Source: an uncultured Verrucomicrobiota bacterium (GTDB taxonomy: Bacteria; Verrucomicrobiota; Verrucomicrobiia; JABWAM01). From it: 64,000 nucleotides of DNA. A model generated the notes under the pieces. It was given only the letters and a program-made list of their open reading frames with translations, was not told where the DNA came from and did not search any database. The position numbers and the translations under genes were made by a program. The DNA lies in NCBI GenBank assembly GCA_964653025.1, contig CAZZBZ010000001.1:39826-103825 (forward strand). Direction: 5' to 3'. Shown piece by piece: positions 228-63,989 of this stretch (positions are counted from its first letter, which is position 1; every line of letters starts with the position of its first letter).

Positions 228-986
228 TCACTGCCACACCCATGCGCTGCCTTGCTGCGGCGTGGTGTTGGCGTTCAGCTTCGCCTGGTCCATGTTCTCC
301 ACATGGCCGTCCAGGAAGCAGATGTTGGCGCTGCCACCGTGCCACTGAAACTGGACGCCTTCCACGTTGGCTCGAACGGGGGGACCCTGGCTTTGGTAGA
401 CGCCGAGCGGAGGACGCGTCGGGCCGTAGGGATACTGCAACGGGTATTCCCCCGAATCCATGAAGACCACCACGTTGGCATCCCCCTTGGCGAACGAACC
501 GGATACGGCCGAGTAGACAGAGGCAGCCCCTGACGCGGGGTCGTATTTGCCCAAACGAAAGTTGTAGGAGTAGTTCGCCTTGTCCATCCGCGAGCCGATG
601 CGGGTGGGGTTGGAGGGACACGCATACACGCTCACTGCGGGCTGGGAATCGAGCGTGAACTTTCCCTCGTTGGGGTTGCGCAAGATCCCGCTGCGGGGAC
701 CGAGCATGTCGTCCCAGAAGTACACGACGGTCGATTCCACCGCGTTGTAGTAGTAGTAGGGAGGAAGGACCCCATAGCTATCTTCGTACATCTTCACCGC
801 CAGGACGAGCTGACGCATGTTGTTGGCGCATGAGATGCGTTTCGCGGTTTCCCGGGCCTTCTTCAAGCTGGGCATCAGAAGGGCCGCAAGGATCGCGATG
901 ATCGCGACGACCACCAGAAGTTCGATGAGGGTAAAAGAAAATCTGGAAGCGGGAAGCAGGAAGCGGGAAGGGCAGCCAAAACGCAT
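228..986 (-). CDS. Prepilin-type N-terminal cleavage/methylation domain protein with DUF1559 (H-X9-DG) domain
   Basis: N-terminus [41 protein letters not shown] is a class III signal / pilin-like methylation motif. The C-terminus has [14 protein letters not shown], the H-X9-DG signature typical of the large DUF1559 families in Planctomycetes/Verrucomicrobia. Start chosen at the internal Met that precedes the pilin-like leader. Confidence 0.8.
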
Positions 987-1252
987 GGCAGGCTTCCTCT
1001 TTCGCCTCGTATCAAATCGGGGCATCGGAGCGCCGTCCTCGAACTCGATGAGCGTGAATCCGCCGTGGGCGTTCAAAATGCGCCGGGCTCCGAACCCGCA
1101 GGTTGAAATTGACGAGTCGTCACACACCACGGACCCATCTCAACCCTGCATCCCCACGATGACGACTCCATTCCGGTGGTCTGAACAACGAACCAACAAA
1201 CCCAGGCGGGGCCGCAAACGGAATGGCCGTCCGACCACACCGACTGCATCGC

Positions 1253-2519: not shown

Positions 2520-3614
2520 ATGAAACTCCCGCAACGCACTTCCCTGATCGGCCAGGTCGTGGAGATCTTGCGCGGCGAGATCGCCTCGGGGCACTGGCAG
2601 ACCCGCCTCCCCGGGGAACGCGCCCTGGCGGACCATCTCCAGGTGAGCCGATCCACGCTGCGCGGCGCGCTGGAGCAGTTGCACCGCCGAGGCCTGATCG
2701 AGACGCGCCGCAAGCGGCACTGGCTCCGCGCCCCGTCTTCCAAGGGGCGACGCCCCGTGGCCAAGTCGCGCGTGATCGGATGGCTCTATGGCGAGGCGCA
2801 CGAGGACCTGTTGCCGTACAAGGTCCGCCACATTGACGAGGTTCGCCGCCACCTTCACGACGCGGGTTACGCGCTCGAGGTGCACTGCGCTCCCCACCTG
2901 CACCACCAGCACACGCACAAGAACCTCCACCCGATGGTCCGCCTCAGCGAGGCGAACGTCTGGATCCTCACCCAGACCCCCCTCTCCGTCCAGCAGTGGT
3001 TCCTCGAGGCGGGAAGCCCCACCCTGATTGCGGGAAGCCGGCATCCGGGGATCTCCCTGCCCGCGATTGACTTCGACTACCGCTCGATCAGCCGGCATGC
3101 CGCCGGCCTGTTCGCAAGCCACGGGCACCGTCGCGTCGGCTTCCTCACCCCCTCCCTCAAGCAACTGATCGGGGACCGCATCTCCCTGCAAGGATTCCAG
3201 GAAGGGATGGCCGCCGCCACCTCGCCGCATCCCGAAGTCGTTTTGGCGGAGCACGACAAGTCCCTTCCGCGAATCTGCTCGGCGGTCGAGTTCCTGGTCT
3301 GCGGGAAGAACCCCGTCACCGGGATCTTTGTCTCCCACCCGAACCATCTCCTCGCCGTGATCAGCCACTTGGGCAGGCTGCGGCTCCGCGTCCCGCAAGA
3401 GGTCTCGCTTGTCGCGCGCCAGCACGACACCCCCCTGGATTTCCTGGTTCCCTCGATCGCCTGCTATGAGTTCAACCACCATCACTACGCCATGCGCGTC
3501 TCCCAGATGGCGGTCCGCATGATCGAGGAGGGATCGATCCGAAACCGCCAGTTCACCCTCATGGGCCACTTCATCACGGGCGACTCCCTCGGGCGCGTGA
3601 AACGCTCCGCCTGA
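2520..3614 (+). CDS. GntR-family transcriptional regulator with C-terminal periplasmic-binding-protein-like (sugar-binding) effector domain
   Basis: N-terminal winged HTH (GERALADHLQVSRSTLRGALEQLHRRGLIE), then a LacI/PBP-like effector domain. Start placed at MKLPQRT; the longer 2415 ORF start is unsupported. Confidence 0.75.
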   Translation: MKLPQRTSLIGQVVEILRGEIASGHWQTRLPGERALADHLQVSRSTLRGALEQLHRRGLIETRRKRHWLRAPSSKGRRPVAKSRVIGWLYGEAHEDLLPYKVRHIDEVRRHLHDAGYALEVHCAPHLHHQHTHKNLHPMVRLSEANVWILTQTPLSVQQWFLEAGSPTLIAGSRHPGISLPAIDFDYRSISRHAAGLFASHGHRRVGFLTPSLKQLIGDRISLQGFQEGMAAATSPHPEVVLAEHDKSLPRICSAVEFLVCGKNPVTGIFVSHPNHLLAVISHLGRLRLRVPQEVSLVARQHDTPLDFLVPSIACYEFNHHHYAMRVSQMAVRMIEEGSIRNRQFTLMGHFITGDSLGRVKRSA

Positions 3615-10842: not shown

Positions 10843-11177
10843 CCGATCCTCCCCCACTCTTCCGCACTGCCGCATGGGTGGGCATGCCTTTTCAGGGCTC
10901 GGGCGGAACCGGGGCTGTGGGCGGCGTGACGATCTCGAAGCGCGGGTCGCGCGGCGAGTCGAACCGCTCGGTCGTGGTGACACGGAGGATCCACGCAACC
11001 CCGACCGTATCGCGGCGGCGGACCGAGGCGCGGAGAGAACCCAACGGGCACGACGGAGCGTGCCCCTCCAAAGATCAGCCCCCACGACTTCTTGTGCCAG
11101 CTTCCCGCTTTGCGCGGCGCGATCTCCCAAAACGGCTCGCATCCCTGAACCGTCCCCGGTACCTATAGGCTTTTCCC

Positions 11178-18767: not shown

Positions 18768-18862
18768 GACGGCTGGTTTAGTCTACCTTTTCGCCAGAGG
18801 CAAGCCGTTGTCCGCGGCCCGCGCTTGCGCTCCGCGCAGGATGCGGCATTCTGCCCAATGCA

Positions 18863-18896
18863 TTGCCGATTTCTGATTGCCGATTTCTGATTTCCA
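18863..18896. repeat. Tandem heptamer array, ATTKSC family (GATTTCT GATTGCC GATTTCT GATTTCC)
   Basis: Read directly in the iscX-galK divergent intergenic region. Confidence 0.8.
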
Positions 18897-27319: not shown

Positions 27320-28498
27320 TCAGGTTGGTTGTTTTTCGGATTTCGGGTTTCGGATTTCGTGTTTCCGCCCCGTTGGGGCGGCGGGGGCCTTGTAGCGGGC
27401 CAGAAAGTCGCGGCGGAAAACGCCAAACTTCCCGGCGCGGATCGCTTCGCGGATCCCACGCATCAGGGCGATATAGAACTGTAAATTATGCCAAGTGACC
27501 AGCCGTAAGGCGAGGATTTCCTCGGCATTAAAAAGATGGCGGATGTAGGCGCGGGAAAATCCGCGGCAGGCGGGGCATGGGCAGCCTTCCTGGATCGGAC
27601 CTTCGTCCTCGCGGTAGCGGCCCGCGCTGACGTGGAGGTAGCCGTCCGGCGTGAAGGCCACCCCGTTGCGTGCGACCCGCGTGGGGAGCACGCAATCGAA
27701 CATGTCCACCCCGCGCGCCACCATCTCGACCAGTTGCGGGGGAGAGCCAAGCCCCATCGCGTAGCGGGGGCGGTCCGAGGGAAGGTGGGGAACGCTCGCC
27801 TCGATGGCGTGCATCATCTCCGTCTCGGGTTCCCCGACGCTCACCCCACCGATCGCGTAACCGTCGAAACCGATCTCGACCAACCGGCGCGCACACTCTC
27901 CGCGGAGGGCGGCGTGGCTTCCTCCCTGCACGATCCCGAAGAGAAGGTTGGGAGAACCCGGGGCAAAGCGGACTTTCCAGTCGCGACATTCGGCGGCCCA
28001 GCGGAGGGAGCGTTCCACAGCCTCGCGAGCGACCGTCTCCTCGCAGGGCCAGGGAGGACATTCATCGAGGACCATCGCAATATCGGAGCCAAGCTTGTGC
28101 TGGATTTCCATCGCTTCCCGGGGCCCGAGGAAGCAGTCAGAGCCATCGAGGTGGGAGCGGAAGGCCACGCCGTGTTCCTGGACCGTTCGGAGGGGGGCGA
28201 GGCTGAAGACCTGGAAGCCGCCGCTGTCGGTGAGGATCGGCCTCCGCCAGCCCATGAAGCGGTGAAGACCACCCATGCGGGCCACCACGTCGGCCCCGGG
28301 GCGAAGGCTGAGATGGTAGGTGTTGGAGAGGAGAACCGAGACCCCGATCTCCTCAAGTTCGGAAGGTGCCATCGTCTTGACGGTACCCTGCGTGCCGACC
28401 GGCATGAAAACGGGAGTCTCGATCTCGCCGTGCGCGGTGCGCAGGCGGCCGAGGCGGAACCCCTCGGGGCCGGCGGTAACCTCAAAGGAGGCGGACAT
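27320..28498 (-). CDS. tgt: Queuine tRNA-ribosyltransferase (tRNA-guanine transglycosylase)
   Basis: MSASFEVTAGPEGFRLGRLRTAHGEIETPVFMPVGTQGTVK ... Zn-site CxCxxC (CPCPAC) ... H. The last ~20 codons (AAPTGRKHEIRNPKSEKQPT) are encoded by a heptamer array (27337-27368). Confidence 0.9.
   Translation of the reverse strand: MSASFEVTAGPEGFRLGRLRTAHGEIETPVFMPVGTQGTVKTMAPSELEEIGVSVLLSNTYHLSLRPGADVVARMGGLHRFMGWRRPILTDSGGFQVFSLAPLRTVQEHGVAFRSHLDGSDCFLGPREAMEIQHKLGSDIAMVLDECPPWPCEETVAREAVERSLRWAAECRDWKVRFAPGSPNLLFGIVQGGSHAALRGECARRLVEIGFDGYAIGGVSVGEPETEMMHAIEASVPHLPSDRPRYAMGLGSPPQLVEMVARGVDMFDCVLPTRVARNGVAFTPDGYLHVSAGRYREDEGPIQEGCPCPACRGFSRAYIRHLFNAEEILALRLVTWHNLQFYIALMRGIREAIRAGKFGVFRRDFLARYKAPAAPTGRKHEIRNPKSEKQPT
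27337..27368. repeat. Tandem heptamer array (GGATTTC GGGTTTC GGATTTC GTGTTTC), overlapping the 3' tail codons of tgt
   Basis: Read directly. Confidence 0.75.
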
Positions 28499-35339: not shown

Positions 35340-38300
35340 GCGGGAGGGGAGTCTACGTGGACGGTGGCGGTGCGGGGGACTTTTCCCCAGGAAACCAGCG
35401 CCCCGCGAAGGGCGCGGCGGAAAGCGCCCCAGACGACGATGCAGAGGAGGGGGCGGTAGACGAATCGCTGGGGCAGGACCCAGAGGGCCCGGCGTATAGG
35501 TTCGCGGTCGAGTCGAAGGGCGAGCATGGCGAGGAGGGTATCCGAGAGGAGGAAGGCGAGGAGGAAGAGGAGGACAAGGCTGCCCCCGCCGCCGAGGACG
35601 GAGAGGATGACGAGCAGGTCCACGATAGGGGACATGGCGGTGAGAAGAACTTGAAAAAACCAGAGGCTGGGCATCGCGATCCAGCCAAGAGTGCCGGCGC
35701 GCGGGTTGAACAGGGCCTCACGGTGTTTCCAGAGGCATTGGAGGGTGCCGAAGGCCCAACGGAAGCGCTGGCGAAGGAGACCCTTCACCGTTTCCGGGCA
35801 CTCGGTCCAGCCGATGGCGCGATCCGCGTAGGCCACTCGCCAGCCATCCCTTCGGATTTGCATGGTGAGATCGGTATCCTCGGCGAGGGTGTCGGCGGTG
35901 AATCCGCCGGCTTTCGCGACGGCTTCGCGACGATAGGCACCAATGGCCCCCGGCACCACGGTGATGCAGTTGAGGAGGTCGAAGGCGCGGCGGTCGAGGT
36001 TGAAGCCCGAGGTGTATTCCAGGGACTGGAACTTCGCGAGCCAACGGCGGCGGTTGCCCACCCTGGCGTTTCCCGAGACCGCACCGACATTCGGATTGGC
36101 GAGGAGGGGTGGCACGAGGCGAGCCAGCGCACCGCGGCCGATACGGGTATCCGCATCGATGGAGACGAGAAGGTCGTAGCGGGCCGCGGCGATTGCGGCG
36201 CCCAGGGCACCCGCCTTACCGGTGTTTTGCTGGGAGATTCGGCGGACGCGCGGGTCAGTGGCGAAGGCGACGGAGATGACCACGGCGGTGGCGTCGGAGG
36301 AGCCATCGTCCACGACAACGACCTCGAGGGTACCCGGGTAACCACAGTCGAGGACTGCTCGGATCGCAGCCTCGATCACGCGTTCCTCGTTATAGGCGGC
36401 GATGACCACGCTCACAGGCGGGAAGGAGGACGGTGGCGGAAGCGGGGGTCGCCGTGCCTGCCAGAGCGCGAGGGCCGCGATGGCGAGGGAGCGCAGGATC
36501 ACGAGGATCGTGGCGACAATGAGAAAGGCCCAGATGAACTCGATGAAGCCATGGACAACCGAGAGGCCAAAGCTGGTGGCAAGGATGGTATGGCGCTCGG
36601 CATTCGGGGCCGGGGGCATCATCTGGTCGTGGGGTATGCCGGCGAGCTCGCTGGCGGTGACGAATCGCACGGGGCGATGGTGAGAGTCGCGCAGCCAGCG
36701 GATCATGGGACGCAGGGCCTCGACCGTCTGGCGGCGATCCCCTCCCCCATCGTGGAGGAGGACGACCGATCCCTCCGAACGGAGCTGCTGCACGCGTCGA
36801 AGGATTTCGGCGGTGCCGGGGCGCTCCCAGTCCCGGGGGTCGATGTTCTCGCAGAGGGTGAGATAACCGAGTTCCTGCGCGCGGAGGATGGGACGGATCT
36901 CGGCCATCGTCTGGGGACGCGAATCGGCGGAGTAAGGCGGGCGGAAGAGGATGGTCGAGCGGCCGGTGATCGACTCGATGAGCCGCTGCGTGGCATTGAG
37001 TTCGAGGTCAAGTTGGACGCGGGGGGTCTCCGAAAGGTCGGGGTGGGTGTAGGTGTGGACCCCGACCTCGTGCCCTTCACGGACCATGCGGACGAGAAGG
37101 TCGGGGTTTTTCTCGGCGGCGCTGCCGACGATGAAAAAGGTGGCCGTCACCCCCTCGGCCTTCAGGATATCGAGAATCTGTGGCGTCCAGTGGCGGTCGG
37201 GTCCGTCATCGAAGGTGAGGGCGATCCAGTTGGGGGAGACGATACCGCCGTGCTCGACGCGGAGGGGTTTCGGGGGATCGAGATAGCGGACGCGAACGCG
37301 ACCGGAGGGGAGGCGTTCAAAGGTGCGCAGGCCCGACTCACGCTCCGGGTGGATGCGGAGGATCTCTCCCTCGCCGACGTGGACGACTTCGTCGGGAAGC
37401 CTGATCCGGTTAAGAGGTTCCCAGTCGCTTTCCGAGGTCGCACGGCGGCGGGCGAGGACGAGGGCGTCCCACAGGGAGGGATCTTCATCACCGAGTTTCC
37501 AAACAGCGATGCCGGCAACGCCTGCGGAGCGGGCGGCGCGGACCTGGTTGAGGGCGGTGGCCGCGTCAAGGAACCAGACGGTGTGCTGTTCGTCGTCCTT
37601 CGCGTAGGAGAAAGTGGGGTTGCCCTCCTCCCCCGCCCAATCAATTCCCACGGGTTCAGCGCTGTCGGCGAGGCTCATGACCTCGGCAAAGGAGAGGTCC
37701 CTGCCCACAGGGCCGCCGAGAGGCCAATCGCACCCGAAGTTGCCGATGGCGGCAATCCACTGGCCGGGGCGACCAAACTCGAGCATTCGGTGGAGCCAGC
37801 GCTCGAACCATGGCTGCGAGGCGAGCGCACCGGGCGGGTCGTGGCGCGAGTTTTCGTTACAAAGCATCGCAATGAGGTAGTCGGCGTGCTCCACGAGACG
37901 GTCGAGGTCGAAGACGAGGGCGTCCCAGCCGACGGGGACGCAGATCATGAAGAGGAGGCCCTCCTCATGGCAGCGGGTGGCAAAACGGATGAGGAAGTCG
38001 TTGAAGGCATCGCTGTAGGAGGGATCGACCTCCTCGAAGTCCACGGCCAACCCCTCGCAGCGAGCGGATTTCACAAGACGAAGGGCCTTCTCAATAAATG
38101 CGGTGCGGTCAGCCTCGGGGCCGGTGACCAGTGCGGCCATGAGGTCCCCTCGCCACCCTTCAAACTCGTTCGTGAGCAGGGCAATGATCTTGAGGTCGTG
38201 CTGGTGGGCGAGGTGACGAGTCTCTGGTTCCGCGGCAAAGGCGAGGTCGAGGTTTTCGTTGGCGATCGTGATCCAGCGTGGGCAGAGGTGGGTAAGGTGG

Positions 38301-38699
38301 GGCGCCGCACGATCGAGCGCGGCGAGGGTGGAGGGGTTTTCCTCGGGAAGGAAACCGAGGGTGATGGGCTCCGGGGGACGGGGAAAGGCCGCACTCGCGG
38401 AACGCCGGCGATCTCGCTCCGCTGTGCCGAGCGAGTGGCGGAGGGCGGGGGTTTCACTGCGCCGCATCGCGCGGCGCGTATCCCGGAGGGGATGTTGGAG
38501 GCCGCGCAACTGGGAACGGAGGGTAGCGACCGAGGAGGGAAGGCGAAGGAAGGGTTGCTCGAGCAGCGAGCGCGCAAATAACAACGCAGCGGCAAAGAGG
38601 ACAAAGCACCCCAGGAGCGCCGCTACGCGGATGATCTTCCAGCGAAGGCCGCGGGCATCGTGGAAGATAAACTGGCGCGTGGGCGCGGGGACGGTCATC
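35336..38699 (-). CDS. Multidomain membrane polysaccharide synthase/modifier: N-terminal TM + GH18-like (chitinase-fold) domain + CE4 polysaccharide deacetylase (NodB) + processive GT2 synthase (QxxRW) + C-terminal TM bundle
   Basis: About 1121 aa from MTVPAPTRQF, followed by a TM helix. GH18-like block (GLAVDFEEVDP ... GIAVWKLGDEDPSLWD). CE4 block (IALTFDDGPDRHWTPQILDILKAEGVTATFFIVG ... HEVGVHTYTHP ... LLHDGGG). GT2 block (VSVVIAAYNEE ... VVVVDDGSSD ... SIDADT ... QRFRWAFG). Then multiple C-terminal TM helices. The ORF upstream of the chosen start would overlap the preceding gene by about 370 bp and is rejected. Confidence 0.75.
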
Positions 38700-46888: not shown

Positions 46889-49402
46889 TCAGTTCGCTCC
46901 CGCGTGCTCTGCCTGCAAGCGGCGGAGACGCTCCTCGGCCTCGGTGCGGCAGGGGAGCTTGGCATCGATCATTCGACGCAAAACCCGTGCCGCCCCGCGC
47001 CAATCCTTCTGGCTCTCCAGGATCCGCTCGGCTTCGAGCCCACCGCGGCAGATCCAGTAGAACTCACGACCCTCGGGGGTCCCACTCGGGGCAGGCTTCT
47101 CATACAGCGGAGCGAGGTGACTTTCCAGCGCCTTTGTAAGGTCGCCCATCGTTTCCCAGGTCTTCCCCATCTCGACGAGGGCCTGGTTGCGAAGGGCGGC
47201 ATCGGCTTTGGGAGAATCGAGGACCGTCTTGAAGGCGGCAAGCGCTTCCTCGTTGCGCTTGAGTTGGCGCAGGCACTGGCCGCGACGGCCCTGCGCCTCG
47301 ATTACCCGCTCGGGGAGTGGCTGAGGCTTGCCGGTCTCGACAGGCTTGACGAGATCCTCAAAGACTTTGAGGGATTCCTGGAACTTGCCGCGCTCCGCGA
47401 GGATGTCGCCGTAAAGAAACCACGCTTCGGGGACCCAGGGCGAATCGGGGTAATCCTTCACGAGCGCCTCGATGAGGCGCCGCGCATCGTCCCTGGCCTG
47501 CCCGAGGCGATGGGCGGCGCGCGCGGCAAAGTAGGTGGCCTCCGGGGCCAGCGGGTGAGCGGGGGCGTTTTTTCGAAGGAGCTCGAACTGCTCCTGGGCC
47601 TTCGCGTGATTGCGAGCGCGATCGTACCAGGCCCCGAGCCAGAACTGCGCCTCGATGGCGGCGGGGGAACGCGGGAAGGCCCGTACGACGCCCTCGAACT
47701 CGGCGACCGCCTTTTCGGGGGACTCGGTATGTTCCATGCAATGCGCACGGACGAGCATGGCGCGGGGAGCGAGATCGTGCTTGGGAAACCTTTCGAGAAA
47801 GGTCGAGGCGGCCTCGGAACCTTCCTTCACCCTTCCGATCGCGTGAAGCGTCTCGGCGTAATCGAGCCATGTGCGGGGAGCGATGGGGGAGTTGGGAAAC
47901 TGGTCGAGGAGGGCGCGGAGCGCCTCCGCGGCCTTCGTGGGTTGTCCTTGGCGGCGGGAGGCGTCCGCTGAGAGAAGAAGAAACTCGGCGCCAAGGCGTC
48001 CGGAGGGGAAGGCGGCAGTGTGTGCGGCTTGAAGGCGGGCCACCTCGGCGGGCTTTCCCGCACGAAGCCACGCACTCGCCCCCTGGTAAAGCGCCTGCTC
48101 GGGCACAGCAGGGTCGATGCCCTTGACCTGCGCGGCCTTCGCAAAGGCGTCGGCCGCGGCCTCGAACTGCTGGCGCTCCATATTGAGGTCGCCGATCTTC
48201 AGCAATGCCTCCGCCTGCACCTGCGGGGTGCGCGCGCGGTCGGCGGCCTTCTGAAACTCAGAGGCGGCAGACTCGAACTTCTTGTCCTCGAGGAAGACCC
48301 ATCCAAGCTGGAGGTGGGCCTGGTCGTTCCATGCGCCGTTGGGATACTTCTCGAAGAAGTCCTGAAAGGCCTGGATCGCTTGATCGCGACGATCGGCGCG
48401 CTTCCAGAGGACACCGACCTGAAGGAAGAGCGCCTCACCAAAAGAGGTCCCCTTCGCCTCGCCTGCCCACTCGGCAAGGCGGTCGGCGAGCACGCGCGGT
48501 TTGTCGAGCTTGAGATAGGCCCCGGTCAGGGCGTCGACGCAGCGGAGGCGGAATGAGGAATCGGTGCTGGTGCGGAAGGCTTGCTCATATTGGGCGGCGG
48601 CCGCGGCCTGATTGCCGGCGGCGGCCTCAATCTCGCCGAGACGCAAGCGCGCAAGGGGAGCAATGCTGCGAGCCTCGGGATTCTCCGATTTTGCGATGGA
48701 CTCAAAGCGGGCGCGCGCCGACTCGGTCAGTTTACGTTCCAACTCGACCTCCCCGAGGGAGAGGGCGGCCTGGAAGCCGATGCCGCTTTTTGCCTCCTCC
48801 TTCGCGAGGCGGCCGAGGACCTGCGCGGCCTCGTCGTACTTCTTTTGCTGGGCAAGGCAGGTGCCGAGGGAGAGGGTGGCCTGCGCGGCAATGTCCTTGC
48901 GGGATTCCTTTTGCAGGGCACGGAACATCTCCTGGGCGGCATCGAACTTGCGGTCGAGCGCCAGGGCGCGCGCCATCCCGTAGCGCGCCTCCGGCAGATA
49001 ACGGCTCTTCGGGAAGTTTTTGGAGAAGGCCTCAAACGTCTTTGATGCGGCCTCGCCGAGCCCCCCCCGCAACTGGGCCTCGCCCAAGAGCAGGGAGAGG
49101 CCGTCCTGCCATTCGGGGCTGGAGGAGGGAAGAACCGATTCGATCGCAAGCTGTGCCCCCTGCCAGTCGCCGGCATTGAGGCGGGCCCGGGCGAGGAGCC
49201 AGGAACCCTCATCCCGCGCCTCCGATTGAGGAAACTGGGTGAGGAGCTTCTCGAACTGCGCGGCGGCCACCTCGTTCAGATGGTCCTCAAGCGCCTTGCG
49301 CCCGAACGCGATCAGGCGCTTTTCCTCTTTCGAAAGGTCGGCGTGCGCCACCGTGGCCAGCGAGGCCACCGCGAGGAGCAGAGCAAAGAATGCGCAGTTC
49401 AT
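46889..49402 (-). CDS. Large secreted TPR-repeat protein (PrsT-like PEP-CTERM-system TPR protein)
   Basis: 837 aa. Signal peptide [21 protein letters not shown], then about 20 TPR-like repeats throughout. Located directly upstream of the exosortase, as PrsT is in PEP-CTERM/EPS loci. 4-bp overlap with uvrA. Confidence 0.55.
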   Translation of the reverse strand: MNCAFFALLLAVASLATVAHADLSKEEKRLIAFGRKALEDHLNEVAAAQFEKLLTQFPQSEARDEGSWLLARARLNAGDWQGAQLAIESVLPSSSPEWQDGLSLLLGEAQLRGGLGEAASKTFEAFSKNFPKSRYLPEARYGMARALALDRKFDAAQEMFRALQKESRKDIAAQATLSLGTCLAQQKKYDEAAQVLGRLAKEEAKSGIGFQAALSLGEVELERKLTESARARFESIAKSENPEARSIAPLARLRLGEIEAAAGNQAAAAAQYEQAFRTSTDSSFRLRCVDALTGAYLKLDKPRVLADRLAEWAGEAKGTSFGEALFLQVGVLWKRADRRDQAIQAFQDFFEKYPNGAWNDQAHLQLGWVFLEDKKFESAASEFQKAADRARTPQVQAEALLKIGDLNMERQQFEAAADAFAKAAQVKGIDPAVPEQALYQGASAWLRAGKPAEVARLQAAHTAAFPSGRLGAEFLLLSADASRRQGQPTKAAEALRALLDQFPNSPIAPRTWLDYAETLHAIGRVKEGSEAASTFLERFPKHDLAPRAMLVRAHCMEHTESPEKAVAEFEGVVRAFPRSPAAIEAQFWLGAWYDRARNHAKAQEQFELLRKNAPAHPLAPEATYFAARAAHRLGQARDDARRLIEALVKDYPDSPWVPEAWFLYGDILAERGKFQESLKVFEDLVKPVETGKPQPLPERVIEAQGRRGQCLRQLKRNEEALAAFKTVLDSPKADAALRNQALVEMGKTWETMGDLTKALESHLAPLYEKPAPSGTPEGREFYWICRGGLEAERILESQKDWRGAARVLRRMIDAKLPCRTEAEERLRRLQAEHAGAN

Positions 49403-52335
49403 GGTTTCAGGGGTGCGGCGGCCGCGGCGCCGGCCGCCGGCAACCCGGTGCGACGCTTCAGCTTCGGTGCGAGGTGTCGTCCCGTGTGGGAATCGGGACA
49501 GGCTGCCACGGCCTCGGGGGTCCCGGCGACTACGATCTGGCCTCCCGCGTCGCCCCCCTCGGGTCCAAGGTCGATCACCCAGTCGGCCGACTGGATGACA
49601 TCGAGATTGTGCTCGATGACGAGCAGGGTGTTGCCGGTCGAGCGAAGGCGCATCAACACCTCGAGGAGCTTCTCGATGTCGGCGAAGTGGAGCCCCGTCG
49701 TTGGCTCGTCAAGGATGTAGAGGGTGCGTCCGGTCGAGCGGCGGGCCAACTCGGCGGCGAGTTTCACGCGCTGGGCCTCGCCGCCGGAAAGGGTGGTCGC
49801 CTGCTGCCCGAGGTGGAGGTAGCCGAGCCCGACCTCCCCGAGGACCGAGAGAGATTCGCGGAGGGAGGGGATGCCACGGAAAAACTCGATCGCCTCGTCC
49901 ACCGTCATATTCAGCACTTCAGCGACGTTGCGCCCCTTGTAAGTGACCTCGAGGGTTTCACGGTTGTAGCGTTGGCCGCGGCAGGCCTCGCACTCCACGT
50001 AGACGTCGGGCAGAAAATGCATCTCAATCTTGAGGATGCCGTCGCCGCTGCAGCGTTCGCAGCGGCCGCCGCGCACATTGAAGCTGTAGCGCCCCGGGCC
50101 GTAGCCGCGCACCTTCGAGGCAGGAAGGGCGGCGAAGAGGTCACGAATCAACCCGAAGGCGCCGGTGTAGGTGAGGGGGTTGGAGCGCGGGGTGCGACCA
50201 ATCGGGGACTGGTCAATAACGATCACCTTGTCGAGAAACTCCGATCCCTCGATGCGCTCGTGCTTGCCGGGACGCTCCTTCGAACCGTGAAACTGGCGTT
50301 GGAGGGCGCGCCGCAGGATATCGTCCACGAGGGTGCTCTTCCCCGATCCGCTCACCCCGGTCACGCAGGTGAGGAGCCCGAGTGGAATCTCGGCGGTGAT
50401 GCCCTTGAGGTTATTCTCGCGGGCACCGACGACGCGAAGCCATTTGTCCTGCGGGTGAATGCGGCGGCGTGGCGCGACGAGGCCGATCTCGCCCGAGAGG
50501 TAGCGTCCGGTGAGCGAGCGGGGATTGGCAAGCACCTCGGCCACCGTGCCCTCGGCCACGAGTTCCCCGCCGTGAACGCCAGCACCGGGGCCGAGGTCCA
50601 CCACGTGGTCGGCGGCGCGGATCGTCTCCTCATCATGCTCGACGACAATCACGGTGTTGCCCAGGTCCCGCAGACGGGTGAGGGTGCCGAGCAGGCGCTG
50701 ATTGTCGCGTTGGTGGAGGCCGATGGAGGGCTCGTCGAGAACGTAGATGACGCCGGAGAGGCGGGATCCGATTTGGGTGGCAAGCTTGATGCGCTGCGCC
50801 TCCCCACCGGAGAGGGTGGCGCTCTCGCGGTCGAGGGTGAGGTAGCCGAGGCCAACCTCATCGAGAAACTCGATGCGGGAGGTCACCTCGCGGAGGGCCT
50901 GCCGGGCGATGGCCTGCTGTTGGGGGTCGAGGGCCAGCCCCGCAAAAAAGCGGAGCGCGTCGCGCACGGAGAGGCGGGAGAGGTCGATGATGGACCTGTC
51001 GCCAAGGGTGACGGCGAGGCTCTCGCGCTTGAGGCGGGCGCCGTTGCAGGTGCCGCAGTGTTGGAAAGTCTGGTACCCTCGGAGGCGTTTCCGGGTGAAC
51101 TCGCTCGCGGTTTCGGTGAGGAGCCGTTGGAGCTGGGGGATGACCCCCTCGAAGGGCTTCGCGATCGCGTGAGGTTTCCCGTTGCGGGTCATCTTGAAGG
51201 TGACCTCCTGTCCGCTCGTGCCATGGAGAATCGCGGTATGCGCTGCCTCGGGGAGAGACTTCCAAGGGGTATCCATGTCGGCGCCAAGGTGCGCGCAGAC
51301 GCTGCGGAGGAGCATCTTGTAGTAGGCGATGAGGCGTCTCCCCCCGCGTCGCCAGGGCTGAACCGCGCCATCGTTCACGCTCTTCTCAGGATCGGGAACG
51401 ACAAGGTCTGTGTCGAAGATCATCTCCTGACCGATCCCGTGGCAGGCAGGACAGGCCCCGTAGGGGCTGTTGAAGGAGAAGTGGCGCGGAGTGAACGCGC
51501 CGAGGCTGATGCCGCAGGCGACGCAGGCGTTCATCGTGCTGTGGAGCGCTTCGTCCCAGGGCGCGCCGTTGCTGGCGGCCCCGTTCTTCGGGGTCGGGCG
51601 GGTGAGGGCAAGGAGAATGCCCTGGCCCCACTGGAGCGAGGTTTCCACGGACTCGGCGATGCGGGAGCGGAAGCGCGGGTCGCACGGGAGGCGGTCCACG
51701 ACCACCTCGATGTCGTGGTTGCGGGATTTGTCGAGGAGGAGGGTCACCCCGTGGCGGTCGAAGATCCGATCCATCTCGTGCATCTCGCCGTCCACGCGCA
51801 CGCGGACAAAACCCTGGTTGCGGACCCTTTCGAGGACATCGCGAAACTCCCCTTTTTTCCGCTGTACGAGCGGGGCGAGAAGCATGAGTTGCTGGCCCGC
51901 GACGTTGGTAAGGATGCGGTCCACGATATCCTGCGGGGTCTGGGTGTGGATCGACTTGCCGCACTTCGGGCAGTGGGGCTGGCCGATGGCGGCGTAGAGG
52001 AGGCGCAGGAAGTCGAAGATCTCGGTGGTCGTGGCGATCGTGGAGCGGGGATTTGACCCGGAGGAGCGTTGCTCGATCGCGATCGCGGGGGAAAGGCCCT
52101 CGATGAAATCCACGTCCGGCTTTTGCATCTGGTCGAGAAACTGGCGGGCGTAGGCCGAGAGGCTTTCGACGTACTTGCGTTGCCCCTCGGCAAAGATCGT
52201 GTCGAAGGCCAACGAGGACTTCCCGCTCCCGCTGAGACCGGTGACGACAACGAGGCGGTTCCTCGGGATCCTCAGGGAGAGGTTCTTAAGGTTGTGCTGC
52301 CGCGCGCCCCCGATGCTGATGCACTCCTGCTCCAT
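49399..52335 (-). CDS. uvrA: Excinuclease ABC subunit A
   Basis: 978 aa. Two ABC ATPase modules ([14 protein letters not shown] ... / [11 protein letters not shown] ...). Zn-finger CxxC pairs. LSGGEAQR signature motifs. Confidence 0.95.
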
Positions 52336-52470: not shown

Positions 52471-53382
52471 ATGGCAACCCCTCTCAGTTTCTGGATCGCA
52501 TTCCACGTCGGCGTCTTCGCCGTGCTGGCGGTAGATCTTTGCCGAAAGCCGGGTGCGGTCTCCTACCGCGAAGCGGGGATCTGGAGCGCGATCTGGGTGG
52601 CCCTCTCCCTCGGATTCAACGCGGTCGTCTGGCGACTGAAAGGCCCCGACAAGGCACTGGAGTTCCTGACGGGCTACCTCGTCGAATACTCGCTGAGCGT
52701 GGACAACGTCCTCGTGTTCGTCCTGGTGATGGAGTACTTCCGCGTCCCCGCCGCCTACCAGCACCGTGTGCTTTTCTGGGGCGTGTTCGGGGCCATCGTC
52801 CTTCGCGGGGCGATGATCGCCGTGGGGGTGGTGCTCGTCCACCAGTTCCAATGGGTCCTCTATGTCTTCGGGGCATTCCTCGTCTTCACGGGGATCAAGA
52901 TGTTTTTCTCCGGCGATGAGGGGGTCGATTTGGAAAACAATGGAATCCTGCGCTGGTGCAAACGCATCATGCCGGTGACCCACGACTACGTCGGGGCAAA
53001 GTTCATTGTGCGGAATGGGGCGTTCTGGGCCTTTACCCCGCTCGCGCTCGTCCTGGTCTTCGTGGACTTCATCGACATCGTGTTCGCGGTGGACTCGATC
53101 CCCGCGATCTTCGCCATCACGCAGGATTCATTCATCGTCTACACCTCCAACATCTGCGCCATCCTTGGCCTGCGCTCACTCTACTTCCTGATCTCGGGAG
53201 CGGTGCGACGGTTGGTCTTCCTGAAAATGGGGCTCTCCATCGTCCTCTCGTTCATCGGGATGAAGATGCTCGTGGCCCACTGGTGGGCGCTCCCGACCTG
53301 GCTCGCGCTTCTCGTCGTGGCCCTGATCCTTGGCGTGTCGGCCATCGCCTCGCTGGTCTCCGAACGTCACGGTAAACGCTAG
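52471..53382 (+). CDS. TerC-family integral membrane protein
   Basis: Start [23 protein letters not shown]. TerC motifs [15 protein letters not shown] and [12 protein letters not shown]. About 9 TM helices. The raw ORF's upstream extension is rejected. Confidence 0.85.
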
Positions 53383-53401: not shown

Positions 53402-53490
53402 CCCGATCCCGCCGTGGGACACGGCGGGCTACCGGGGAAAACACGATCTCCTTGGTAGCCCGTGCTGTCCCTAGCACGGGATCCGTCGGA
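53402..53490. repeat. REP/REPIN-like element: two inverted GTAG-hairpin units (CCCGCCGTG-gga-CACGGCGGG-CTACC and GGTAG-CCCGTGCT-gtccct-AGCACGGG) between convergent terC and DUF4340 genes
   Basis: Read directly. Shares the 17-mer CCCGATCCCGCCGTGGG and the GGTAGCCCG ... hairpin with a second copy at 62763-62900. Stems differ by compensatory substitutions. Confidence 0.7.
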
Positions 53491-53523: not shown

Positions 53524-55404
53524 TCACTTCGCGGCGGGAGCGTTCGTCGAAACCGCGGAAGCCGCAAGAGACGGTTTCGTGAGAAAGTCGGCAGTCAGGA
53601 TCAGAAAATCATCGCGGGTGATCTGGGTGAGGAGCAGCTGATTCTTCCAGATGAGGCTGTTCGTGCCACCGACCTCGCGGGCGACCACCAACTCCTGGGT
53701 CACCGTCTTGCCCTCAACCTCGCAGGTCAGCATCAGGACCGCGGCGGGCGGGTCGAAGCCCTGCTGCTTCGCGGTTTCATTGAGCGCGACGCCTTCGATC
53801 CTCGCCACCTCGAAGCGCTGAAAGCGGTTAAGAAGCCGCTGCCACGGGGTCTCATTCAGAACGCCCGAGGCACCCTCACCCACCCTCCATTTGCCCTCCT
53901 TCGTCTTTTCCATGACAAGGGTGGACTTCCCCTTCTTCACGGTCACCGACTTGATTGTGTCCTTCTTGATCTCGAAAAGCACGCGGGAGCGCAGTTCCAG
54001 CGCACTTTTCGGAAGCGCGGCGGCATCGGCAGCGTCCACGGCGTAAATCGAGGATTCGTCGGCGCGCTTCACGTAAGCAAGCTTCTTCACGGGATCGGCC
54101 TTGCCCACCGCAAGGTCAAGAAGCACGGTCGCAGCGGCGCTGGCCACGGCGGGAGGGGCGTTGGTCTCCGCGGGTGCGGGGACCTTGGGCTCGCCGGCGC
54201 GGTCGCGCAAGACTACCTGCCCAAGCGGAGCCTTGAGTCCGTACTTGTCGAGGTCGGTGAGGACGTCGGCCGCAAACTCCTTCACCTGCATTCCTGAGAG
54301 GCGTGCGAGGAACTTGTCCACGAGCTCGTTGTCGGCGGCCACCTTCTCGGGCTGGATAATCCGCCACTGGTCATTCGTCTTCTGGAGGAGAAGGGTCGCG
54401 GCGCGGTTGCGCACCTCGATCTCGCGAATGTCGGCGGCCGCGAAAGGGGCGACGTCACGGTCGCGGATCTCGTTGAGTGGGCGCGCCGCATCGGCGGCGA
54501 AGGCAACCGGGACGGAGACGATGGAGTTCTGGCCCTTCACGCGGGCAGCAAGCTTCTTGTCGTCGGACTTGAGCTTCGCGCCGAGAGTGAGGGTATTGAC
54601 CGCGTCCTGTTTCTCAATGCGAACGCTGATCTCCTGCGAGGGCTCCTCAATGCCGTATTCCCGCGAGGCAGCGGGGTCCTCGCTCAGGAAATCGTCGGCA
54701 CGCAGCGAGGCCAGTTGACGAAGAAACTCCTCCACCCTGTTGCGATCGGCGCGGGCGTTGAGGGGCTGGACGATCCGCCAGTTCTGATTGGTACGCGCGA
54801 GCTCGACAAGTTTGCCCGCGGCCCGCAACTCGATGCGCTGAACCTGGTCTCCCGTAAACTCGAAGAGCGAGCGCTCGCGGTAATCCTCGATCTTCTTCTC
54901 GATGCGAGTCGCAAGGTACTTGTCCACGAGGTGGACCTCCTTGCTCCCCTTCACCTGGACGTAGAGGGCGTCCCCCTGGCGCGCCTCGTTTCCGAGGAAG
55001 AGGGTGCTCTCGGATTTTGGGGTGCGAAGGGTGACGGATGCGCGAGGCTTCTCGAGTCCGTAGTCGGCAAGGGTAAGCTTTGCCTCGGAGATGGCGCGCT
55101 CGGAAAGGCGGCGGCGGCTCTCAAGAAACTCAAGGCCACTGAGGATCCCGTCCATCTCGCCCGAGGCAGCGCGCACCTGGAGGGGACGGGAGAAGGACCA
55201 CTTGCCCTGCTTGCGATCGAAGACAAAGTCGCGGTCGGCACCCTTGATCTCAAGGCGAGTGACGTCGACGGCCTTGAAGTCGAGGACGCGCCTCTGTTGC
55301 TCGGAAGCCTGGTCGGTGGTGGGGAGCTTCTTTTTCGCAAGGAAATACCCTCCCGCGACCAGTGCCGTGAGCAGGAGAAGGGTGAGCGTGCTCTTGATTT
55401 TCAT
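53524..55404 (-). CDS. GldG-associated periplasmic protein (DUF4340-like), terminal gene of the Gld-like ABC operon
   Basis: 626 aa. N-terminal TM anchor (LTLLLLTALVAGGYFLA), then a long soluble region with repeated modules. Position after gldG-like as in the conserved gldA-gldF-gldG-DUF4340 arrangement. Family call is by synteny and recognition only. Confidence 0.5.
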   Translation of the reverse strand: MKIKSTLTLLLLTALVAGGYFLAKKKLPTTDQASEQQRRVLDFKAVDVTRLEIKGADRDFVFDRKQGKWSFSRPLQVRAASGEMDGILSGLEFLESRRRLSERAISEAKLTLADYGLEKPRASVTLRTPKSESTLFLGNEARQGDALYVQVKGSKEVHLVDKYLATRIEKKIEDYRERSLFEFTGDQVQRIELRAAGKLVELARTNQNWRIVQPLNARADRNRVEEFLRQLASLRADDFLSEDPAASREYGIEEPSQEISVRIEKQDAVNTLTLGAKLKSDDKKLAARVKGQNSIVSVPVAFAADAARPLNEIRDRDVAPFAAADIREIEVRNRAATLLLQKTNDQWRIIQPEKVAADNELVDKFLARLSGMQVKEFAADVLTDLDKYGLKAPLGQVVLRDRAGEPKVPAPAETNAPPAVASAAATVLLDLAVGKADPVKKLAYVKRADESSIYAVDAADAAALPKSALELRSRVLFEIKKDTIKSVTVKKGKSTLVMEKTKEGKWRVGEGASGVLNETPWQRLLNRFQRFEVARIEGVALNETAKQQGFDPPAAVLMLTCEVEGKTVTQELVVAREVGGTNSLIWKNQLLLTQITRDDFLILTADFLTKPSLAASAVSTNAPAAK

Positions 55405-62282: not shown

Positions 62283-62759
62283 ATGGAGACCATCCCGTTT
62301 CTCACCAAGGAAGATGTCGCCGAGATCGACAGCCTTCTCGGCGACTACCTCCAGAAGTCCGACGCCAACTTCACGATCGTGATCGATCGCGGGGGCACCG
62401 TGATCGCCCAGTGCGGTGAGGGAGAGAGCGCGGACATCACGATCATCGCCGCCCTCGCCGCCGGCTCCTTCGCCGCCACCAAGGAACTTGCCCGCCGCAT
62501 CGGGGAGTCTGAATTCAGCGCCCTCTACCACCAGGGAAGCAACTACCACATCTTCATGAGTTCGCTCGACGAGCACACGATCATCATCACTCTCTTCGAC
62601 GAGAAGACCACCGTCGGCCTCGTCCGCTTCTACACCGTCAACGTCACCCCCGCGCTCAGCACCCTCCTCGACCGACTTCGCAACCGCGGCGCATCGAACG
62701 CTCCCGAGCTTTCCGCCACCGGTGCATTGGCCCCCTTCGGCCCCGGCACCCGGAACTAA
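62283..62759 (+). CDS. mglB: MglB (Roadblock/LC7-domain GTPase-activating protein for MglA)
   Basis: 158 aa. FTIVIDRGGTVIAQCGE ... AALAAGSFAATKELARRIGESEFSALYHQGSNYHIFMSSLDEHTIIITLFDEKTTVGLVRFYT parallels M. xanthus MglB (VVFLVDKNGQLISSAG ... ASLTAGNVAAMGGLAKLIGENEFPNQFHEGAKDSLYMTIVG ... VIFDNRTSLGLVRLRI). 4-nt gap after mglA. Confidence 0.8.
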   Translation: METIPFLTKEDVAEIDSLLGDYLQKSDANFTIVIDRGGTVIAQCGEGESADITIIAALAAGSFAATKELARRIGESEFSALYHQGSNYHIFMSSLDEHTIIITLFDEKTTVGLVRFYTVNVTPALSTLLDRLRNRGASNAPELSATGALAPFGPGTRN

Positions 62760-62762
62760 CCC

Positions 62763-62900
62763 CCGATCCCGCCGTGGGCTTGCCACGCGTGGGACACAGC
62801 GGGCGACCCCATCACCACGGCCACGCCTTACCGGTAGCCCGTCGTGTCCCTACGACGGGTCTTCTCCGACAGATCCCGTGCTGGGACAGCACGGGCTACC
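62763..62900. repeat. REP/REPIN-like element, second copy: degenerate 5' part + GGTAG-CCCGTCGT-gtccct-ACGACGGG hairpin + inverted unit CCCGTGCTG-gga-CAGCACGGG-CTACC, between convergent mglB and the O-antigen-ligase-like gene
   Basis: Read directly. Stem GTCGT/ACGAC here versus GTGCT/AGCAC in the 53454-53480 copy, a compensatory double change that preserves the hairpin. Shared loop GTCCCT and 5' GGTAG. Confidence 0.7.
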
Positions 62901-63989
62901 ATGGGTAGGCGGCGGTGTCCCTTGGCAGAAAGAATTGGAGGGGCATGCTCCGTCGTGCCCGTGCGAAGCTGAGTGTTCACAAAACCCGACAGAACTGCAA
63001 CGCGCCCCGAGCGCCCCGAGCAGCACGAAGGCCGGCCACGCGTTCCCCACCAGGTAGAGATCGAAATCCACGAGCGAATGGATCGCAAAGGCCACGAGCC
63101 CGGCCCACACGAGTGTCCAGGGCCAGCGCTCTCGAACGGGGACGGTCCGCACGCGTCGCCACACGGCGAACAGGGTCCCCGGCAGCAGCACCGCGAAGGC
63201 CGCGAAACCCACGATCCCGCTATCGCACCACATCTGGAGATAGCTGTTGTGAACGAGTCGCGTATTCTCCGCATCCCACGCCTTGTAGCGGGGATAAAGT
63301 TTTGAAAAAGTGCCCGGCCCACTTCCCAGCACCGGGTAGTCCAGTCCGATCCGCCACGCGGCGCGCCAGTAATCCACCCGTGCCGAGAGGGTCCGCTTCC
63401 CCTTCTCGACCCCGCGCTGCCCGTAACCCGCCGCGAAACCGATCGTACCCAGAAGGAGAACCCCCACCGCAATCCCGATCGCCAGCCTTCGCCGAACCCC
63501 CCCCGCCAGCGAGAGGACAAGGGCGGTCGCGACCAGCGCCGCATAGCCCCCCTTCGACTGTGATTTCCAGAGGCAGAAAAGCAACGCAAGCCCCAGGGTC
63601 GTCCCAAGGGCAAGACGGAGGCGGAAGTTGCCTTCCCCTCTCCCCATCAAAACCCACGCCGCCACCAGAAAAATCGTGGTCGCCACGTACCCTCCGAGGG
63701 CATTGGGATAGACGAATGTCGCGAACACCCGCCCCCGGCTCACCCGCTCCCAGAGTTCGGGCATCCCCGCCCCCATCTCAGGGTGAGACTCGAGGAATTT
63801 CCGTGTCTCTTCCAGACCGCCAGTCGCCTGCCCGATCCCCGACCATGCCACGAGACATGCACCCACAAGCCAGCCCCCCAGCAGCCAGCGCAGCCCACGG
63901 TCGTCCCTCCCCAGCGCGCACCCGAGGACGTAGCCGACCACAAGCGATGCAAAGAGCGCCATCACCGCCCCACTCAGCGGGCGATCCAT
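62850..63989 (-). CDS. O-antigen ligase / Wzy_C-domain polymerase family membrane protein
   Basis: About 10 TM helices. Wzy_C signature ... RLVHNSYLQMWCDSGIVGFAAFAVLL ... The C-terminal ~45 aa of the ORF (Cys/Pro-rich) reads through the REP-like element and may not be genuine coding sequence. Confidence 0.65.
   Translation of the reverse strand: MDRPLSGAVMALFASLVVGYVLGCALGRDDRGLRWLLGGWLVGACLVAWSGIGQATGGLEETRKFLESHPEMGAGMPELWERVSRGRVFATFVYPNALGGYVATTIFLVAAWVLMGRGEGNFRLRLALGTTLGLALLFCLWKSQSKGGYAALVATALVLSLAGGVRRRLAIGIAVGVLLLGTIGFAAGYGQRGVEKGKRTLSARVDYWRAAWRIGLDYPVLGSGPGTFSKLYPRYKAWDAENTRLVHNSYLQMWCDSGIVGFAAFAVLLPGTLFAVWRRVRTVPVRERWPWTLVWAGLVAFAIHSLVDFDLYLVGNAWPAFVLLGALGARCSSVGFCEHSASHGHDGACPSNSFCQGTPPPTHGSPCCPSTGSVGEDPS

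Follow-up and report, generated by a model that had tools for sequence, protein, structure and literature searches.

Inverted doublets of GTAG-tagged REP hairpins in a Verrucomicrobiae genome, probably copied by a REP-associated tyrosine transposase

REPs are well studied in Proteobacteria. Those of E. coli are longer than the repeats described here, have a bulged stem (group 2) and reach documented copy numbers in the hundreds. Inverted REP pairs (REPINs) were reportedly recognized as the duplicated unit by Bertels and Rainey in 2011. To our knowledge, the REPs of the PVC superphylum have barely been described, the published cases being limited to Opitutus terrae and a few Planctomycetes.

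The closest described systems belong to the GTAG-tagged REP superfamily, for which Di Nocera, De Gregorio and Rocco defined 24 families in 2013 (PMC3733652). Its members are palindromes of 20-40 nt that have stems of 6-13 bp, short loops and dimer spacers of 20-100 bp, are mostly extragenic and typically reach tens to hundreds of dispersed copies per genome, or more. The superfamily includes dimers with the GTAG heads inside or outside, sub-families with complementary stems, G-T pairs and stop codons supplied by the repeat. Four families (GTAG-17 to GTAG-20) occur in the verrucomicrobium O. terrae, where GTAG REPs are abundant and linked to Oter_2468, a REP-associated tyrosine transposase (RAYT, also TnpA-REP), and several occur in Planctomycetes; RAYT genes are flanked by the same REPs (PMC3733652). 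For group-3 TnpA-REP enzymes acting on short, perfectly palindromic REPs, GTAG is needed for cleavage and single loop bases are essential, while stem swaps are tolerated and mismatches are harmful; the enzymes cut the folded single strand at a CT close by (PMC8266576). The REPSm/SMAG element of Stenotrophomonas maltophilia, for example, consists of GTAG, an 8-bp perfect palindrome and a 3-nt loop (PMC8266576).

Here we analyzed a 64-kb stretch of DNA (the window; 64.6% GC) from an uncultured Verrucomicrobiota bacterium, in which the original prediction had placed a GTAG-tagged, structure-selected element of the REP/REPIN type in two copies. The window contains four perfect units and one decayed unit at two sites. 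All four perfect copies follow the pattern GGTAG-CCCG-NNNN-G-TCC(C)-Y-NNNN-CGGG, with a unit size of 25-27 nt and a perfect stem of 8-9 bp. The build is thus almost that of REPSm/SMAG, with GTAG, a 9-bp perfect palindrome and a 3-4-nt loop, although the loop and stem sequences differ. Traits of the GTAG superfamily recur as well, namely an unpaired GTAG at one end, a palindrome, complementary stem changes and G-T pairs.

Site 1 carries two hairpin units in inverted orientation, exactly as first described. Unit A (53408-53433, minus strand; 37.3 bits in the covariance model introduced below) combines GGTAG with the 9-bp perfect stem CCCGCCGTG/CACGGCGGG and the loop TCC; its plus-strand letters are CCCGCCGTG-GGA-CACGGCGGG-CTACC and its minus-strand reading is GGTAGCCCGCCGTGTCCCACGGCGGG. 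Unit B (53454-53480, plus strand; 45.6 bits) combines GGTAG with the stem CCCGTGCT(G)/(T)AGCACGGG and the loop (G)TCCC(T), and can alternatively be split as GGTAG-CCCGTGCTG-TCCC-TAGCACGGG. Both GTAG heads face a spacer of 20 nt (53434-53453), with which partial pairing of the heads is possible. The whole doublet runs from GATC to GATC (53405-53483) and folds into either separate short hairpins or one long imperfect hairpin of the REPIN type.

Site 2 is more complex than the second copy of the original prediction. The GGTAG flank and the loop are present there in unit C (62833-62859, plus strand; GGTAGCCCGTCGTGTCCCTACGACGGG; 48.7 bits), with the stem CCCGTCGT(G)/(T)ACGACGGG and the loop (G)TCCC(T), but the left hairpin, here called unit A' (62768-62808, minus strand), is not intact. 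Unit A' is homologous to unit A, scores 14.7 bits and folds with a z-score of only -1.4; its loop region is lengthened by an insertion of 15 nt, its stem has a G-to-A change and its head reads GGTCG in place of GGTAG (CTACC to CGACC). A third, perfect unit, which had not been spelled out, lies 15 nt beyond unit C: unit D (62875-62900, minus strand; GGTAGCCCGTGCTGTCCCAGCACGGG on that strand; 36 bits), with GGTAG, the stem CCCGTGCTG/CAGCACGGG and the loop TCC. The arrangement is therefore A(-)/B(+) at site 1 and A'(-)/C(+)/D(-) at site 2, where C and D form a doublet with the GTAG heads outside, as opposed to inside in the doublet of site 1.

The two sites share the 17-mer CCCGATCCCGCCGTGGG (53402-53418 and 62762-62778), as had been claimed, except that the second copy starts at 62762 rather than 62763; at site 2 it forms the left end of unit A'. 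When both sites are aligned, the A-B and A'-C doublets prove homologous, with 76% identity over 125 columns, which indicates that the doublet, and not a single hairpin, was duplicated. Between units B and C the stem differs by a true double compensatory swap (GC/GC to CG/CG), again as predicted.

These units are far in excess of chance. The window contains five occurrences of GGTAGCCCG against 0.44 expected. GTAG joined to a perfect hairpin of 8 bp or more is seen four times, whereas 300 dinucleotide-preserving shuffles of the window average 0.017 such cases and never exceed one. A covariance model (R1) built from family members and run on the window gives the four units 36-49 bits, and no other part of the window scores above 17.3 bits. 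The 17.3-bit match, a GGTAGCCCG occurrence within the TerC gene (52645-52678; position 52670), has a large irregular loop and was treated as chance. As single-stranded DNA, each intact unit folds into the hairpin described (-9.2 to -12.2 kcal/mol, z -3.7 to -5.3), with unit A at -12.2 kcal/mol (z -4.85) and unit B at -9.3 kcal/mol (z -3.7).

Site 1 is intergenic: a plus-strand gene of the TerC family has its stop at 53382 and a minus-strand DUF4340 gene has its own at 53524, and the doublet takes up most of the 141 nt that separate them. At site 2, which comes after a plus-strand Roadblock/LC7 gene with its stop at 62759, the only overlap is with the odd C-terminal tail of a minus-strand Wzy_C-type (O-antigen ligase-like) ORF. 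The last ~45 codons of this ORF (...GARCSSVGFCEHSASHGHDGACPSNSFCQGTPPPTHGSPCCPSTGSVGEDPS; 62850-62990, minus strand) traverse unit D and a second repeat described below, are rich in Cys, Ser and Pro and resemble non-coding DNA that has been translated; it seems that the natural 3' end of the gene was replaced or extended by the repeats. Its first stop codon is a TAG in the loop of unit C, a stop supplied by the repeat as in the GTAG superfamily. Both copies had been placed between convergent genes, which holds strictly for copy 1 only, since the Wzy_C ORF runs through unit D into unit C.

Within this ORF tail lies one copy of the second repeat, ACGGGCACGACGGAGC(G/A)TGCCCCTCCAA, found at 62935-62962 (minus strand) and 11044-11071 (plus strand) with 27 of 28 positions identical. 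A copy in a relative (L183, 15201-15228; ATGGACACGACGGAGCGTGTCCCTCCGT) shows a compensatory change from GGGCAC/GTGCCC to GGACAC/GTGTCC, so this repeat is also structured, with a conserved 8-nt loop. Its opposite strand reads GGAG plus a hairpin, so the repeat could be a REP-like element with a different tag. The window also contains AT-rich intergenic arrays of 7-nt units (GATTTCT, GATTGCC or GATTTCG) at 18848-18896, 22176-22210, 22391-22423 (inverted) and 27333-27367. One inverted pair of arrays brackets ~180 nt (22211-22390), and the arrays could be protein-binding arrays near promoters.

The same DNA is also present in assembly GCA_049318025.1 (contig JBMOHD010000018.1), which starts at window position 62968. 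Short-read contigs of the window organism end within unit B at 53462 (L002) and next to the second repeat at 62968. Such breaks at the repeats are as expected for multi-copy sequence, and are only suggestive of it.

The best named relatives of the UvrA encoded in the window are MAGs labeled 'Verrucomicrobiae bacterium', and it is 64% identical to UvrA of Limisphaera. The host is therefore a Verrucomicrobiae (Limisphaera-like) MAG, in contrast to O. terrae, which belongs to the Opitutales. In O. terrae, REP insertions were found within both uvrA genes (PMC3733652), while the window uvrA contains no unit of the GGTAG/TCC(C) family. UvrA length in the clade (window 49399-52335, minus strand; homologues P0027-P0146) varies from 937 to 1034 aa through low-complexity linker insertions such as LNPAGKMPSSTAGGDARHHAE and GDAREKFKGVLRVACCV.

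We also scanned 185,579 species genomes with the pattern GGTAGCCCG-NNNN-GTCCC-N(4,5)-CGGG, which matched at least 95 stretches. The repeat occurs in several Verrucomicrobiota and Lentisphaerota genomes ranging from 42 to 72% GC. Three parts do not change among these, namely the GGTAG head, the CCCG/CGGG clamp and the TCC(C) loop, and covariation is seen in the four middle pairs of the stem. Every intact window unit and every family member from other genomes has the GGTAG. Since the pattern put no constraint on the middle of the stem, the matches provide an unbiased test of pairing. All four free positions pair in 10 of the 16 Verrucomicrobiota or Lentisphaerota matches listed, compared with 1 of the 62 listed from outside the PVC group (Fisher p = 6e-8).

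Covariation was measured on 11 distinct 27-mers, leaving out the 26-mers. Changes on both sides are found in four of nine pairs. The share of paired cells is 97%, whereas column shuffles give 83.6% and none of 500 reaches 97%; in registers slid by 1-3 columns the share is 31-53%. In 8 of the 11 the loop is closed by a G-T pair. Such a pair is tolerated only on the GGTAG strand, so this strand may be the one to fold.

The Verrucomicrobiota MAG CAZNSF01 (~42% GC) has at least nine loci among the matches listed, with variable stems (TCGT, TTGT, TCAC, TTGC, CGCT and others) and a constant head and loop. Three of its doublets (L023 204-274, L043 1370-1430 and L079 709-773) are heterodimers of the stem classes CCCGNNNNG and GCGGTGNTG with a common GTCCCT loop, resembling the Y/Z REP pairs of E. 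coli BIMEs, and its repeats stand out as islands of ~65-70% GC within AT-rich intergenic DNA. Other genomes likewise contain single units and inverted doublets; in the latter the heads lie inside or outside and 6-20 nt separate the two units. Doublets or clusters are found at L017, L023, L035, L048, L068 and L079, the one at L035 being an alternating cluster of three units. By a crude ORF map, copies elsewhere are mostly intergenic and lie between convergent, tandem or divergent genes, so convergent placement is not a property of the family. From these data and those of the window we conclude that the repeat is real, that it makes up a family shared by several genomes, that its hairpin is under selection and that extragenic doublets are its form of organization.

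Planctomycetaceae SH248 (CP197413.1; L022, L041, L047, L053, L076 and L094) and a Planctomyces MAG (SXPC01; L004, L008, L020, L040, L059, L062 and L083) have a cousin of the repeat that is nearly invariant, GGTAGCCCGGGTTGTCCC(C)AACCCGGG with CGTGCCGCTTCG after it. Its head and loop are identical to those of the Verrucomicrobia family, whereas its stem is invariant. The cousin, in the form GGTAGCCCGGGTTGTCCC(C)AACCCGGGCGTGCCGCTTCG, often lies ~100 nt from an inverted GGTAGTCCGGGTTGTCCCAACCCGGACGGCGA.

There is no copy of the repeat in ~69 kb from three relatives of the window organism (UvrA 75-85% identical), among them 23 kb of a relative with UvrA 85% identical. With two sites per 64 kb in the source and none in the ~69 kb of relatives, the density is modest. 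Synteny of uvrA with TerC is not conserved in the relatives compared.

Comparison with named families of O. terrae and P. mendocina places the repeat outside them. The peptides encoded by intragenic REPs of O. terrae (GTGVPPV, VGPALAAG, VAGV...) are incompatible with GTAGCCCGNNNNGTCCC in any frame, so the window repeat, which differs in sequence, is not among GTAG-17 to GTAG-20. The P. mendocina REP GTAGCCCGGATGCAATCCGGG (Nunvar 2010), considered as a member of the same family, shares only the head. The window repeat is thus a new sequence family of a known kind, the GTAG REPs, in a phylum from which such repeats have already been reported.

The window contains no RAYT gene, in agreement with the original prediction; none was returned by an HUH...Y..NP regular expression, by two profile HMMs with filters disabled or by tblastn with nine published RAYT/TIRYT sequences. 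A weak tblastn match (38282-38488) falls within a 1249-aa ORF, in the frame of that ORF, and was attributed to chance. The 95 loci listed from the genome scan (mostly 8-kb blocks, ~15 of them from Verrucomicrobiota or Lentisphaerota) and the ~69 kb from three relatives likewise contain no RAYT. Scans of viral contigs yielded no RAYT and a single DNA match, which is due to chance.

We also collected RAYTs from elsewhere together with the REPs that flank them. Oter_2468 was rebuilt from the alignment in PMC3733652 and 24 relatives of it were found; RAYTs of this type are flanked by GTAG-GGCCTSAC-cttgc or GTAG-GGGCGCAG-tcttg units (GTAG-GGCC.../GGGCGC...-cttg) and not by the window family. Metagenomes were scanned with the RAYT alignment and 80 loci were kept; in most of them GTAG hairpins stand on both sides of the gene, and none of the 80 carries GGTAGCCCG...TCCC units. 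The same holds for the loci of six REP-flanked RAYT proteins, P0010, P0019, P0147, P0256, P0149 and P0240/P0150. A Verrucomicrobia contig of 3.4 kb (L191, GCA_003218525.1) has Y1_Tnp/RAYT genes at 532-999 (minus strand) and 2521-3018 (plus strand), ~1.5 kb apart, each adjoining GTAG hairpins of a different sequence.

The REPs of nearest build belong to the RAYT clade P0147/P0150/P0256 from metagenome contigs, whose genes are flanked by units of GCGTAG, 9 bp and TCCT or TCCC. The upstream unit of the P0147/P0256 clade, GTAGgCCCGCCGGtccCCGGCGGG, is a few bases from unit A, and these REPs (GCGTAG-G(C/T)(C/G)CGCCGG-TCCT-CCGGCG...) likewise combine GTAG with 9 bp and a TCCY loop. They differ in having a stem register displaced by one base, GCGTAG rather than GGTAG as the head and another host genome, and assigning them to the same family would go against the covariance-model consensus.

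Taken together, the recurrence of the units, their covariation, the doublets, the extragenic copies and the RAYT-flanking REPs of the same build all support the reading of the element as a GTAG-tagged, structure-selected REP/REPIN-like repeat. We consider it probable that these are REPs of the GTAG superfamily arranged in inverted doublets similar to REPINs and BIMEs, copied by a RAYT and acting as hairpins in RNA. Each unit consists of an unpaired GGTAG, a 9-bp GC-rich stem on a fixed CCCG/CGGG base, four freely covarying middle pairs and a fixed TCC(C) loop. In the mechanism that we propose, it most likely originated as single-stranded hairpin DNA copied by a RAYT of the Y1/HUH type. Such an enzyme, if of the kind that acts on short perfect palindromes, would recognize the GTAG tag and the loop while accepting swaps in the stem, which would explain the pattern of fixed and covarying positions. 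A constant loop and GTAG beside a stem that can be swapped agree with what TnpA-Sm and TnpA-Mb were measured to recognize (PMC8266576). This match with group-3 TnpA-REP suggests that the units are substrates, or former substrates, of such an enzyme; a RAYT would have mobilized them in the window genome. The copied unit would be the doublet, as in REPINs; in E. coli REP/BIMEs and Pseudomonas fluorescens REPINs, too, the inverted pair is the duplicated unit, alternating arrays occur and copies lie in 3' UTRs. Once inserted in or near 3' untranslated regions, the doublets would most likely act at the RNA level, as stable hairpins that block 3' exonucleases or read-through. Counting against the proposal, no RAYT locus that we retrieved carries exactly the REP sequence of the window, and no RAYT turned up in the window, in the 95 loci or in the ~69 kb from relatives; the modest density and the decay of unit A' also speak against it.

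Three rivals are each less likely than this explanation. The main one, which we regard as quite unlikely, is that the repeats are true REPs whose RAYT has been lost from the lineage, so that they are now immobile and slowly decaying, perhaps co-opted as binding sites for host proteins in the way that E. coli BIMEs are binding sites for gyrase and IHF. One unit, A', is indeed decaying, so the family may be a relic, and the low density and the lack of copies in 23 kb of the closest relative point the same way, as does the lack of a RAYT in any sequence reached for the lineage. The part of the genome covered amounts to only a few per cent, however, and all but one of the five units have kept a perfect palindrome and an intact GGTAG, as would be expected from recent activity or strong selection. 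Loss of REPtrons is known from many E. coli strains (PMC3733652).

Host-evolved hairpins that serve as bidirectional terminators or attenuators, purely for termination or protection of mRNA 3' ends between convergent genes and without any transposase, are improbable. Both window sites lie at 3' ends of genes, the hairpins are very stable and inverted doublets place a hairpin on both transcripts; a GC-rich hairpin soon after stop codons is also shared with Rho-independent terminators. However, no unit is followed by a T-run (flanks ATCCGTCGG, TCTTCTCC, ATCGGGAT and ATCTGTCGG) and a terminator scan found nothing at either site; lacking a T-tract, the sites are not canonical terminators. What distinguishes them further is their behavior as a repeat family and the conserved unpaired 5' tag and loop, which remain invariant over genomes of 42-72% GC and which a terminator does not need. 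Copies elsewhere also lie between divergent or tandem genes, and the homologous flanks and spacer ends of the two window sites indicate duplication rather than independent origin. A search of the whole window against Rfam at gathering score gave no match, and the matches at the two sites at E <= 10 are sub-threshold, involve only miRNA or sRNA models and were set down to chance.

When folded as RNA, the inverted units of each doublet preferentially come together in one long imperfect hairpin, at -71.9 kcal/mol (z -4.0) for site 1 and -78.1 kcal/mol (z -4.15) for site 2. A MITE moved by a DDE transposase would likewise form one long inverted repeat, but this origin is hardly credible given that no target-site duplication flanks either doublet, that the arms are themselves palindromes carrying GTAG, that single units and alternating clusters occur and that opposite head arrangements, with GTAG inside or outside, misfit the fixed ends of a MITE.

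Returning to REPs copied by a RAYT, a bolder extension, which we hold to be unlikely, is that the design of GGTAG, CCCG clamp and TCC(C) loop has stayed nearly unchanged across Verrucomicrobiota, Lentisphaerota and Planctomycetota, either because the RAYT was co-inherited or transferred with it or because a host factor maintains it without a RAYT. In the first case, a single RAYT lineage would have been inherited together with its REP since before these phyla split, or would have moved between them. In the second, a conserved host factor would have taken over the hairpin, and the REP family would be maintained by the host and not by a transposase.

The finding itself opens no new kind of biology and is ordinary rather than surprising. 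For those who annotate Verrucomicrobia MAGs it gives reason for caution, as the repeats break short-read assemblies and can extend or truncate the ends of ORFs, as in the Wzy_C tail. In this family, natural variation also shows cleanly and directly which positions are fixed (tag, clamp and loop) and which are free (the middle of the stem), which yields a prediction of what the cognate transposase should recognize.
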